Shown here: one piece after another, positions 12,137-63,168 of the stretch
Position numbering within the stretch: the stretch's first letter is position 1
Layout of the letters: each line of letters begins with the position of its first letter
Assembly: GCA_964016885.1 (NCBI GenBank)
Contig: OZ024742.1
Location: 295,988,001-296,052,000 of the forward strand
Source: Eledone cirrhosa
Lineage: Eukaryota
Direction: 5' to 3'
DNA: 64,000 bases
Made by a program: the position numbers and the translations under genes
The notes under the pieces: model-generated
Told to the model about the DNA's origin: nothing
Databases searched by the model: none
What the model saw: the letters and a program-made list of their open reading frames with translations, nothing else

Positions 12137-12185
12137 TCTTGTTACTCTGGAGTTTCACCTGTTTATCACAGAGCAATGAGACAAA
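12137..12185 (-). ncRNA. Decayed hammerhead ribozyme, same family as 15184-15233
   Basis: Homologous flanks; GAAA-ctc-ca-gag-UA-acaaga retained but the CUGAUGA core reads CUCAUUG. Confidence 0.55.
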
Positions 12186-15183
12186 CACACACATACACAG
12201 ACATGCATACACACACACGTATGTATCCACACACGTGTGTGTGAGGATGAGGGAAATGTCTATGTATAGATATCTCTATAGACAATTTAATTTTACAGCT
12301 ATCCATCTTGGAATGATATTACTGTCTTCTCCATCATCAATAACTTAAGAGAAAGATGTAAACATACCCTATATAAATACAAATTCACATATACTGTCCA
12401 TTCAAAATGTATTATATTCTATTTATACTACTCTCAGTGGTATGGAGATACACCATGTGTCCATGTGTATGCCAGTTTTAGAGTTGGTGAACTATATCAA
12501 CATGTCTTGTTAGGCGTGACTAAATTGTGTGTACCAGGAAGATTATCAAGGTCATAAAACACTGAAACAAAACGTTTCATCTTACCAATGCAAACATAAA
12601 AAGGTAGATGTAAAACAATGATGATGATGATGGTTGGTGTTAAGATATAAATATATTGTATAATATAGATAGATGCATTGTGGTTTTATTTGGTAAAAAT
12701 ATCCTTCTTGGGAATCCTGTGTGTTTTAGTAGTGGTGGTGGTGGTGGTGGCAGAGGCAATGAATGCAGCAGCAACAGCAGTGGCTGTAAATTAGCTTAAC
12801 TCTTAATACCTTGTACTACATGAAACTGCCTTAGCAAAACATTCCTGAAAGTACAACATCAAATTAAAAATTAAAAGCTTTAGATTACTGCAACAATCTG
12901 TCCATTAGTAAATATACTATAAACATTTCAATTAAATCTGGTTTTAGATATTTACTGCTAAATCTTTGCAGGATATTAAACTAAATGTTCATGAATTATC
13001 ACAAAATTCATAGGAATCTCAAACACAGAAGTAGCTGTAAAAACAGCTAGCTGCTATTATGCATAGCAAAAGTCGGGTTAAAATATAACCTCATGGAAGA
13101 CCGGGCAGAGAAGGAGGAAGAGAGGGAGAGAATGAAAGAAAGAGAGTCTAAAACATATGTTAACATAAATGCTTATAATTTATTCTCGACAGTTTCAAAT
13201 ATTACTGTTTATTGTAACTTAAGGTATTTGTTCGTTTATTTTTATGTTTTTAGTTCTTTTCTATTCTATTTATCTTAACTTTATCTTTTTTTGTGATAAT
13301 GATTGTGCATCTGTGCTGATTGATAGATGTGGTTTAGCCCCAGGTCAGACCTGATTGAGCTGACTTATTATGAAAAGTTATTCTAGCTGTCATCATCATC
13401 CTGTATGTTTTGTATATCTTTAACTACATCTTCCAATAAATCATTCTTTATTTGAAATAGTTGTATGAAATTAGGGTGATACCTAGTTGATATTTCTAGC
13501 AGATCAAGCAACTTTGAAGAAACTCCTTTGGTGTCAAGAGGAAAATATACTGTACTTTTTTACATAATAGTGGTTGGTTGGTTGGTAGGTAGGTAGTGTT
13601 AATTTTTGAATTTGTAAAAAAATAAATATTAAAAATAAAATAAAATATGAATATTTTGATCAAATTTGCCTTAGTTATTTTATCTGGACCTGTTTTCACC
13701 AACTAAACTAAATCATATCTGTATATTTTTGACATGAGGGCTGTGGGTGTTAAAATACGTAACAGTATGTATTTGGTACACAATGGGTGGGAGGTAAAAG
13801 ATATACCAGTATGTCTTTGGCACACAAGGTTTAGAAGAAAAAAAAAAACTATGACATTTTTGACACTGAAAGTGTTAAATATAGCTAATTTCATATTCAG
13901 CAAATACAAAGTATGTGAGAATAAATTGCTGATAGTTATTCATATTTGATAGATATAAGAAAACTTTCTTGATAAAAAATACAAGCTAGATATGTGAGTT
14001 ATGTGTTTATACAAATGGTAACGACATCTTTGAATATCCATATCAAAATACTTATGACCTCTATTTACCTTATTTTTCAGATATCTTTTATTTATGTTGA
14101 TAAATGTTGTATTATGTTAGTTATTCTTTGATTTTTTTTTTTTTTTTGGGGGGGGGGTCCTGTTTTTCTTTGATCAAAAGTCAACCAGCACTACCAAACT
14201 CTCACTTTTGATTCTAAATCTTTATCGATATATCCCTATTGCACTAAATATTCACTCAGTATTCATTGAATATAATAAATATGTTTGAGTTTCACAAAAA
14301 GAATTTCCTTTGCAATAGTAGTCAGTCAAAAAAAAAAAGAATTGCCACTGCATACACCTACCCACATAGACCTACCCAAATAAGATTTATTTTTAAAGAA
14401 AAGATCAAAGTGACATTCCATATCAGTTAATATTTTTTTCATCTCATCAACATTGAGATCAGTTTACATTAATAGGCAAACGTTTTTAAAAGCCACCCCA
14501 CCTGGCTTTGCTGTACTCTGCCCCACCTCTGCCATGTCTACAGATCTTTATCATCTGGCCATTTCTATAAATCAACTAGATGATTTATATCTATATATCT
14601 ATTAGTGCTATACCCTACGCTATTGGAGAAAATACATTTTTTTTCTTTTTAATTTCTGTCTTTGCTTTTGTTTTCTCTTTCTCCTATACTCTCTCCTTAC
14701 CTCTTTACAATATTCATTCAGTTTATTGAGAAGATAAAGAATTTCAGAAGATATTCATTCTATTTGAAAAAGCTTTTTAAATATATATTATGTGTGTGAA
14801 TGTAAGCATGGTTGTGTGGTTTAAGAGTTTACTTTGCAATCACATAGTACTGCATTCAATCTCACAGCACGGTACCTTAAACAAAAATATTCTTCTATAG
14901 CCAAAGGTTGATCAGGGCCTTATGAGGGAATTTTGGTAGACAGAAACTATGCATAACCTTGTGGTATATATATATATAATTATATATAACATCATCATCA
15001 TTTAACGTCTATTTTCCATGGTTGCATGGGTTAGACAAGTTGTCACATTATAAGACAATTCAGGTCACATGCCTTATCCTGCTCATATAGGTCTGTATTT
15101 TGGCTTGGTTTCTACAGCTGGATACCCTATCTAACGCCAACCATATTATATATATATTCATTTTATTAAGGCTAAATAGTGAA

Positions 15184-15233
15184 TCTTGTTACTCAGAAGT
15201 TTCAACTGTTTATCACAGTGTCATCAGACAAGA
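15184..15233 (-). ncRNA. Type I hammerhead ribozyme
   Basis: Minus strand: tcttgt-CTGATGA-c-actgt(gataa)acagt-t-GAAA-ct(tctg)a-GTA-acaaga; perfect 6-bp stem I, 5-bp stem II, short stem III, GUA cleavage triplet. Confidence 0.8.
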
Positions 15234-62040: not shown

Positions 62041-62120
62041 ACACACGCTGATGAACCGAGACTAGACCATTTCTTTCAACAAATTTCTGGTGAAACATAT
62101 CTTTGGATTTGTACGTGTGT
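62041..62120 (+). ncRNA. Type I hammerhead ribozyme
   Basis: acacacg-CTGATGA-acc...ggt-GAAA-catatc(tttg)gattt-GTA-cgtgtgt; perfect 7-bp stem I, 7-position stem III with one U-U, GUA triplet at 62111-62113. Confidence 0.88.
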
Positions 62121-62568
62121 TATATAGTTATAGAGGTATTTATTTACGCTTTAATTTATATTTTTAATTATCGTGTCTATAGTCTGCCTTTCATAGGTTA
62201 TAGATTCCATACACTGGTGGTTTTTTCCCTGTATTATTGATAACGCACTATATATCTCTCTCTGGTGTGTTTCCTTCTCAACATATTATATTTTACATAT
62301 ACATATATATATATATATATATGTATATATATATATATATGTATATATATATATATGTATATATATGTATATATATATATATGTATATATATATATATGT
62401 ATATATATAGGTGTATATATATAGGTATATATGTATATATATATATATATATATATATGTATATATATATGTATATATATATATATATATATATGTATAT
62501 ATATATATATATATGTATATATATATATGTATATATATATATGTATATATATATGTATATATATATAT

Positions 62569-63168
62569 ATTTGGAGATAATAATAAAGAATTCATATCTA
62601 GTAACATATATATACATACAGATGCATATCAATGCTAGCAAATATATAGGTTTTGTCTTAATAACAGTGTGGTTCAATGCATGGGGTTGCAGAACAATAA
62701 TATAAGAGACGGAAAATAAGAAAATTATAAAATTAACTTACTTACTAAAATATCACTTCCAACTAATTAGTTTCTGGAATGGAGTAAATATATTTTCCGA
62801 AGAAGATATAGAGAAGCATTCCGTCGTCAGGAAAGTCTATTCCCATGTAAGTTTCCAGGCAAAGTGAGGACACTGGAAACTTATTAAAAAATAATTCAGT
62901 GGATAGGAAATAGCAAAGCGTGGACTGAATTCCAAGCCATTGAGAAAATCACTGCCTCTACGTCTGTGGCAAATTCAAAAAGAATCGAACACGTGACATC
63001 GAGGTCAATCAGTGGAAAGTGGTTTGCTAATAAGACAGCGGCCTGCCTACAACCGTAGCAGCAGTCATGGCCAATATTGCTCGACAAATAATTTGGAGAT
63101 AATAATAAAGAATTCATATCTAGTAACATATATACATACAGATGCATATCAATGCTAGCAAATATATA
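62569..63168 (-). mobile_element. Non-coding hammerhead-bearing ~520-bp unit plus ~80-bp terminal redundancy
   Basis: 62569-62648 is repeated directly at 63091-63168; internal hammerhead; TA arrays on both sides. Confidence 0.8.
62755..62836 (-). ncRNA. Type I hammerhead with palindromic stem III and long loop II
   Basis: actttc-CTGACGA-c-ggaatg...cattcc-a-GAAA-ctaatta-GTT-ggaagt; ACTAATTAGT is self-complementary. Confidence 0.78.

Follow-up and report, generated by a model that had tools for sequence, protein, structure and literature searches.

What placed twelve hammerhead ribozyme motifs in a 64,000-nt stretch of the genome of Eledone cirrhosa (assembly GCA_964016885.1, contig OZ024742.1, positions 295,988,001–296,052,000; the whole stretch is called the window below)? 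The motifs lie between window positions 12137 and 62836, and an earlier note on this DNA had described them as a local community of ribozyme-processed, non-coding RNAs that share (TA)n microsatellites as landing sites and are mobilized by one helper resembling a GIY-YIG/reverse transcriptase (RT) frame at 59.5 kb. We conclude with considerable confidence that the hammerheads belong to the 3′ ends of seven families, four of them protein-coding Penelope-like elements (PLEs) and three without an open reading frame (ORF), that these 3′ ends are fixed and lie in (TA)n, and that the insertions were likely made by a PLE RT and GIY-YIG endonuclease.

Self-BLAST grouped the twelve motifs into seven families, and not the six or so of the earlier note: A (motifs at 23909 and 57314), B (59192 and 60394), C (57796 and 58498), D (61273 and 62041), E (12137 and 15184), F (27994) and G (62755). 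The two B motifs and the two D motifs are inverted halves of one insertion each, giving ten insertions with stems related within families in place of twelve separate motifs with unrelated stems. As folds predicted from sequence, the motifs are genuine and far above chance. The first version of a type I descriptor (CUGANGA and GAAA boxes, NUH, three helices) gave four strict and seven relaxed matches in the window, against means of 0.02–0.04 and 0.37–0.48 in 100 block dinucleotide shuffles per descriptor. With the final descriptors, seven strict and nine relaxed matches were found, and the shuffled window had a mean of 0.02 and a maximum of 1; the scan against dinucleotide-shuffled sequence suggested in the earlier note thus came out in favor of the motifs. 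All twelve reported type I folds were located at their sites. Nine fit the descriptor, seven of them strictly (C3 at 15227, 23913, 57850, 58505, 61345, 62048 and 62830; two of the seven with mismatches at the base of stem II) and two in relaxed form, the family B motifs with C3 at 59230 and 60399, which fit only with a 2-bp stem I. The other three are damaged: the core at site 12137 reads CTCATTG (12174–12180), site 57314 (core at 57350–57344) has lost its cleavage triplet, and stem I of site 27994 is mispaired in the window copy and pairs in the majority of family F.

If the motifs were chance folds in AT-rich, low-complexity DNA, three misses would be unsurprising, and Rfam indeed returned no hammerhead among the matches listed (150 of 343), in which microsatellite matches to miRNA models dominate. 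Two observations speak against such an origin. In a background sample of 80 evenly spaced 10-kb tiles (800 kb) of the 3.0-Gb assembly, the first descriptor version found 76 matches (six in the window), compared with 0–1 in ten dinucleotide shuffles. Moreover, stem changes are compensatory, in that subfamilies of C (its sisters), G (variant L214; L numbers denote loci) and D (variant L160) keep their pairing with altered stems, as judged by eye without a statistic. We consider the probability of chance folds to be negligible.

The background tiles also define how local the phenomenon is. Refined descriptors gave 79 (strict) and 88 (relaxed) tile matches, or 6.3 and 7.0 per 64 kb, and seven and nine in the window, whose density equals the genome average (resampling P = 0.32 and 0.27). 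Across the genome the density is about one hammerhead per 10 kb, which extrapolates to 296,000 motifs (bootstrap 165,000–457,000; 172,000 with tiles capped at two matches). All seven families are dispersed, with first-look candidates numbering 3747 (A), 38,040 (B), 1510 (C), 1934 (D), 3320 (E), 2046 (F) and 2755 (G); these totals are not copy numbers, and the best 40 candidates per family (150 for B) were scored. Tile matches correlated weakly with TA cover (rho 0.27). Only 57–63 kb is dense, with four crude families in the 54–64 kb tile, which was chosen post hoc, versus at most three in each of the 80 background tiles. Hence, the claimed concentration of motifs holds only for this nest, the window as a whole being at background density, and the idea of a local community gives way to dispersed families. 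Published counts, obtained by methods other than ours, include ~2,000–9,000 minimal motifs per genome (PMC4209133; ~1.6–4.6 × 10^5 motifs here, with different descriptors), more than 6,000 for a coral, as many as 120,000 retrozyme copies for axolotl (PMC7229834), and 235 Rfam hammerhead matches in giant squid (PMC6962438). A repeat annotation of Octopus vulgaris lists 31 recently active PLE families, and its main text makes no mention of ribozymes (PMC13282606). Further hammerhead families were seen in the background tiles, with units of 310 bp (L216, L251, L335), 482 bp (L255) and 467 bp (L220) and others in L196, L214 and L217; among them are an inverted tandem array of 17 units and a unit with a TA tract of its own inside.

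The GIY-YIG frame at 59.5 kb leads to the first coding partner. It is a 5′-truncated copy of family B (ORF remnant at 59505–60131, plus strand) that keeps the C-terminal 208 of 1217 codons, including a CX4CxxC linker and a GIY-YIG domain with CCHH, and has no RT. The remnant lies within one insertion (58985–60690, plus strand) composed of an inverted pseudo-long terminal repeat (pLTR; C3 59230, minus strand), the endonuclease end of the ORF, and a direct pLTR with tail (C3 60399, H17 60432; stem I 2 bp). The full element has the structure pLTR–ORF–pLTR, with the ORF start inside the pLTR and 1217–1218 open codons that encode an RT followed by a C-terminal GIY-YIG endonuclease in an intact frame. 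The RT was recognized by a profile match to solved RTs (E 3.9e-6), by ESM Atlas neighbors carrying RVT_1/GIY-YIG/HTH_animal, and by a tblastn match (E 3e-16) to a frame with Pfam RVT_1 and GIY-YIG; the nearest named homolog of the protein is an Octopus vulgaris protein with 68% identity. The linker and CCHH residues C595, C600, C603, C611, C622, C627, H665 and H670 of the aligned fragment are kept in at least 90% of 49 rows, and a strict regular expression for the whole spacing matched 5 of the 49. All 150 scored copies, the best 150 of 38,040 candidates, were 97–100% identical, and by its sequence B is a young autonomous PLE, the most active of the seven families. Family A is its sister and has coding sequence of its own. 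In 9 of 29 family A loci, B-like coding sequence on the same strand, mostly 37–60% identical to B, lies upstream in co-linear, partly broken frames. In the window, A is represented by a pLTR insertion with TA on both sides (23741–24086, plus strand; inverted tail piece 23741–23845 and a direct 3′ end; minimal hammerhead with C3 23913 and H17 23947) and by the subfamily copy with the deleted cleavage triplet (57173–57402, minus strand; 77% identical to 23851–24086).

By linker and CCHH features alone, A and B are placed with PLEs of the Neptune/Nematis type. They share with these elements an RT followed by a C-terminal GIY-YIG endonuclease, a CX2-5CxxC linker, CCHH, a pLTR that includes the ORF start, inverted 5′-truncated copies, a tail at one end and a bias for (TA)n; they differ in showing DKS for DKG and in tails of 45–70 nt instead of 30–40 (PMC8557442). 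The B protein (L021:2346–5996, minus strand) also has a ~170-residue Asn-rich insert ahead of the RT, which resembles Adineta Penelope (PMC3846280) and is unlike Neptune/Nematis.

Families C and F have coding sequence of a second kind. Hydra-type coding sequence was found upstream in 12 of 24 family F loci, and locus L336 holds a 2557-bp hammerhead–ORF–hammerhead unit, close to the ~2.6 kb of Hydra PLEs (PMC8557442). For family C, no frame was present in 30 short loci, and a search with the upstream part of C led to a Hydra frame (DKT, CxCX5C). In three of five long regions, this frame is co-linear with two hammerheads and a 3′ region of ~2 kb that is rich in microsatellites. The C and F frames are co-linear, partly broken, and encode an RT with a C-terminal endonuclease; the two RTs are 52% identical. 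On motif features alone, namely DKT, the CxCX5C linker, no CCHH, and terminal CxxC/CxH (translations from L333, L334, L336, L155 and L176), C and F are placed in the Hydra clade. Published Hydra PLEs have the same C-terminal endonuclease, DKT, CxCX5C linker and lack of CCHH, as well as CxxC and CxH around E/N, canonical hammerheads and (TA)n insertion (Craig et al, 2021, PMC8557442). Family C adds the ~2-kb 3′ region with a second hammerhead, and Hydra elements, which amount to few families in that account, are abundant here. A "Naiad" label for the YRDDG frames was considered and rejected, as Hydra fits by the published description (PMC8557442); the Naiad combination of an N-terminal endonuclease with the lack of a canonical hammerhead was not found, all coding partners having a C-terminal endonuclease. 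The window copies of C are an inverted tail with a Hydra-clade PLE 3′ end (58394–58590, plus strand; C3 58505, H17 58550; stem II 12 bp) and a sister copy with a different, partly decayed stem II (57760–57890, minus strand; C3 57850; 75% identical to 58468–58593). F is present as the 3′ end of a Hydra-clade PLE (27984–28142, plus strand) bearing the minimal hammerhead with mispaired stem I and a palindromic stem III (C3 28010).

Several observations accompany these families. The 3′ region of the C parent (L314, L329, L332–L335) consists mostly of (TA)/(TG) microsatellite and holds two hammerheads, related to each other and 1.3–1.9 kb apart; other PLE ends have inserted into the tracts that it carries. 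In a C variant (L068:1300–2100), the tail continues through ~190 other bases back to the hammerhead, forming a ~350-nt permuted unit that is possibly a retrozyme born from a C pLTR. Just past the right end of the window, a 5′-truncated Hydra-clade PLE of another family (L026:753–2102 and 2900–3050; CxCX5C) carries its own TA-flanked hammerhead with palindromic stem III and lengthens the 57–63 kb nest. The pLTRs of A, B, C and F have in common a GCATGCG palindrome, 56–132 nt upstream of the core. We take the palindrome to be reminiscent of an NRF-1 site, and it may serve both PLE clades as an internal promoter element.

Families D and G were of a different make, consisting of ORF-less head-to-tail units of 541 and 523 bp with 98–99% identity and one type I hammerhead per unit. 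At least two same-strand cores were present in 7 of 30 D loci and 8 of 25 G loci (some loci overlap). GC contents were 0.39 (D) and 0.35 (G), and the minimum free energies of the circular units were −130.3 and −117.4, compared with −108.1 ± 6.3 and −96.3 ± 6.1 for the respective mononucleotide shuffles. The window contains one inverted insertion of the D unit (61014–62295; C3 61345 on the minus strand and 62048 on the plus strand, the latter with H17 62113; stems I and III long) and 1.15 copies of the G unit (62569–63176, minus strand; C3 62830, H17 62761; long stem II, palindromic stem III). Two other descriptions of G were rejected: a core without stems, as a longer stem II yields a clean fold, and a pLTR of the Hydra family beside the window, as a hammerhead of its own is present in that family and, in two of three loci, TA tracts lie between the two. 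In L182, a 5′-truncated G unit is joined directly to the 3′ region of this Hydra family. Like described non-LTR retrozymes (PMC7229834; bioRxiv 10.64898/2026.07.22.740005), D and G are ORF-less tandem units with a single type I hammerhead each, a GC content below 45%, and more self-pairing than shuffles. They differ in their units of 523–541 bp, mostly in 1–3 copies, and no sequence link to a pLTR was found. By the genomic features tested, D and G qualify as non-LTR retrozymes, and the earlier note's recognition of both PLE pLTR hammerheads (A, B, C, F) and retrozyme-like units (D, G) was correct.

Family E is a ~150-bp orphan element that starts at its own hammerhead stem I. Its window copies are 15145–15235 (minus strand; C3 15227; tail absent here) and the core-mutated copy 12098–12186 (minus strand; 85% identical to 15145–15231), inactive as a hammerhead. 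Of 83 alignments, 54 begin in the first 8 nt, at stem I; 37 of these copies have E sequence upstream (36 fold-backs, one same-strand), and the other 17 share upstream only microsatellite and one duplicated pair. Tandem E units were not found, only solo or fold-back copies. The preceding base is G in 31 of the 54 copies (15145–15235 and L117–L141, L272–L301), which we would guess to be cap-derived or a start site; no parent was found.

From their sequences, only D, G and E look non-autonomous. They could instead be pLTR remnants of unsampled autonomous PLEs, with the tandem units arising from partial-tandem PLE insertion; C, after all, also looked ORF-less until the upstream search found its parent, and searches limited to the best 40 copies favor those resembling the query. 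On the other hand, the exact 541/523-bp head-to-tail period means that what lies upstream of a unit is again the same unit, TA tracts set the PLE frames near G apart or these frames are owned by a family with its own hammerhead, and the 17 E copies without fold-backs share no sequence upstream of stem I. We judge a remnant origin unlikely, though it deserves to be kept in mind, and favor ORF-less families that use PLE enzymes.

What joins the coding and ORF-less families is the footprint of their integration. In each family, two fixed 3′ ends lie ~45–120 nt from one another and inversions are frequent, and in all but E the 5′ ends vary; tandem or inverted pLTRs, 5′ truncation and a tail at one end are shown by A, B, C and F alike. 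Copies in both orientations were seen in 19 of the 28 loci for D and in 12 of the 24 for G, and either family has two classes of 3′ end. The PLE tail has been described (PMC8557442, PMC3846280) and corresponds in vitro to two internal RT starts (Frangieh et al, 2024, PMC11167929). PLEs have been proposed as retrozyme helpers (Cervera & de la Peña, 2020, PMC7229834; Li et al, 2026, bioRxiv 10.64898/2026.07.22.740005), and since D and G share the PLE tail, they provide genomic support for this hypothesis. The tail, inversion and (TA)n target of D and G do not appear in the consulted portions of those two retrozyme accounts. Junctions carried microhomology of at least 2 nt on TA words of the element in 97 of 125 informative cases, compared with 12–28% for random positions; the count uses exact 14-mer matches only and leaves out B internal tracts and the F end with a reference that itself stops in TA, four of the counted D/G rows may be internal tracts, and family copies are non-independent, leaving about ten independent sites. 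By family, the counts were 21/24 (A), 10/13 (B), 3/14 (C), 23/26 (D), 8/10 (E), 3/7 (F) and 29/31 (G). PAc Poseidon in vitro likewise shows two internal RT starts giving a tail, an AT-rich cut, and unprocessed RNA as the main template; the start there is non-homologous to the cut, whereas the junctions here lie on 2–5-nt TA words (PMC11167929).

The association with (TA)n is strongest on one side. In selected loci, 3′ ends abut (TA)n in 274 of 378 alignments and 5′ ends in 42 of 378 (the B rows include A cross-matches); the 3′-end misses include internal D/G tandem junctions and an E query from which part of the tail was missing. Among 61 3′ ends in the unselected tiles, 49 were at (TA)n. Of 76 background motifs, 45 had TA no more than 200 nt downstream and 15 had it upstream, compared with 17.8% of random positions (arrays are non-independent). 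Adjacency to (TA)n, its use as a shared landing site, and the enrichment expected near it by the earlier note are therefore all upheld, the copy at 12137 being the exception to adjacency. The landing pad is shared, but the PLE-type families are much stricter for (TA)n than the RTE LINEs (long interspersed nuclear elements) and SINEs (short interspersed nuclear elements).

A strong 3′ bias of TA is also what would be expected if (TA)n were made at insertion, by RT slippage or non-templated addition, or expanded later, and were not the target. PLE RTs are related to telomerase, which we count in favor of such an origin. The L316 site described next, with ~14 TA units against 5–9 in empty copies, fits it as well. 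However, the L316 insert, ~290 bp long with a hammerhead and bordered by TA at either end, occupies a short TA tract that stands empty in nine paralogous copies of C, and in L334 a short A-type end lies within another C tract. The empty paralogs already hold (TA)n, so that in these two cases the tract precedes insertion. Furthermore, (TA)n targeting has been published for Hydra, Neptune and Naiad (PMC8557442). We regard generation of (TA)n at insertion as improbable and retain (TA)n as the target.

The ribozyme itself left no comparable trace. No 5′ end fell within 3 nt of the cleavage site in 138 alignments, many of them cross-family matches of the shared A/B end; the counts were 1 of 47 for D, 1 of 49 for G, and 6 of 83, near expectation, for E. 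A reading of 5′ ends as a record of self-cleavage was dropped as unsupported, there being no pile-up at the site in genomic copies. In addition, 45 unselected copies span the core and cleavage site. Together, these observations indicate that the RNA copied into cDNA was mostly uncleaved or re-ligated, in agreement with PMC11167929, and they leave the mobilization of ribozyme-processed RNAs suggested in the earlier note without support. By sequence, stem III is palindromic in A, C, F and G and long in D; a palindromic stem III predicts cleavage as a dimer. The hammerhead, whose cleavage is a prediction, probably rides along as a passenger or else serves to process a precursor or to make circles; it is likely not a targeting device. 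Minimal hammerheads of PLE pLTRs (Cervera & de la Peña, 2014, PMC4209133) share with those described here the type I fold in pLTRs, an extra base after A9 (A, B), a helix III that is short or palindromic, numerous families in one genome, mostly solo truncated copies, and opposite-strand pairs 100–700 bp apart. A 2-bp helix I like that of B is known for Drosophila Penelope; several families here, unlike those, have no G10.1–C11.1 (PMC4209133).

These data also bear on the form in which the earlier note had cast the locus, with ribozyme-processed RNAs moved by one helper like that at 59.5 kb. It would account for six insertions of five families within 57.2–63.2 kb and for the excess of crude families in the 54–64 kb tile, and its trans-helper part survives for D, G and E, which have no coding frame. 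Background-level density in the window and the missing 5′-end pile-up argue against it. Each of A, B, C and F supplies RT and endonuclease in cis, the enzymes of C and F belonging to a different clade, and so needs no such helper; the 59.5-kb copy has no RT. We find it very improbable in this form and prefer insertion of hammerhead-bearing PLE and PLE-dependent 3′ ends. In the corresponding mechanism, the GIY-YIG endonuclease would nick (TA)n, and the nicked end likely pairs with a 2–5-nt UA word in the RNA and primes RT at one of two internal sites. Two such primings would leave an inverted structure that carries a tail on one side. D, G and E would borrow PLE enzymes in trans. Each insertion, together with the TA-rich 3′ region of C, likely adds target and may lead to nests such as 57–63 kb.

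Several points weigh against this interpretation. Pfam gave no match, either for the endonuclease in the window or for five PLE frames (B, F and Hydra frames), and the clade placement of A, B, C and F comes from sequence motifs. No helper enzyme was pinpointed for D, G or E. With the reference used, 10 of 14 C junctions lacked microhomology and only three of seven F junctions had it, and C end 2 is a counter-example to the TA-word pattern. In vitro, the RT start of the anole PLE is not homologous to the cut DNA (PMC11167929). Hammerhead-free RTE/SINE ends also lie at TA in 13 of 49 cases (overlapping sets), versus a 4.3% baseline. Lastly, stem I of B is only 2 bp long, although B is the most active family.

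The surroundings of the motifs are rich in repeats, including long (TA)n tracts, RTE-type and other apurinic endonuclease (APE) LINE frames, and SINEs. (TA)n-rich tracts flank the nested insertions at 56973–64000 (tracts at 57900, 58267, 58588, 60689, 60828, 62297 and from 63177 onward), and pure (TA)5+ covers 16.6% of 56.9–64 kb, compared with 7.2% of the background. At 28772–48643, two young RTE-type LINE families (APE-RT-PHD) are nested in very long TA tracts; the LINE stretches 28978–32442 and 38894–42343 are 97% alike, with local duplication or an assembly artefact as candidate causes. A LINE fragment with RVT_1 and zf-RVT at 49294–51668 (plus strand) is presumably Tx1/L1-like. A tRNA-like SINE ending in (GAT)n occurs at 24560–24898, 28403–28793 and 57400–57741, its 3′ part matching the RTE LINE end. 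Further features, at 36039–37047, 52617–52952 and 55025–55322, are a direct duplication of 490 bp where a LINE has its 5′ end and minisatellites of 48 bp and 44 bp, the 48-bp one derived from SINE/LINE end sequence. Frames beside insertions elsewhere, judged by eye, are a candidate cadherin-repeat exon (L136:3–1304), a Pif1/Helitron-like helicase piece (L165:253–1152) and an IL-17-like frame (L336:1109–1633).

The association of PLEs, hammerheads and (TA)n is already published; added here are how dense the motifs are, the footprint that a helper has left on retrozymes, the rule of TA words at junctions, and elements that seed their own targets. No octopus hammerhead census or TA microhomology priming was found in the literature covered, with subscription papers and Repbase outside that coverage, and files S1/S2 of Craig et al (2021) may list these families. 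More speculatively, and with the odds somewhat against it, the genome may host a self-feeding microsatellite ecosystem of ~200,000–400,000 hammerheads, in which two PLE clades prime in the manner of telomerase via a UA word, D/G circles and E are mobilized in trans by that signal alone, and TA tracts are spread and lengthened by the elements. The PLE integration footprint on D and G makes it testable which enzyme moves animal retrozymes. The choice of microsatellites by PLEs likewise becomes testable, through a 2–5-nt primer–template rule and two endonuclease linker types with the same target, as does the role of the PLE hammerhead, given copies that span the cleavage site and a most active family with a 2-bp stem I. 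Young, intact material is available for these questions, and the results suggest an influence of PLEs on the genome's TA content, which is very high.

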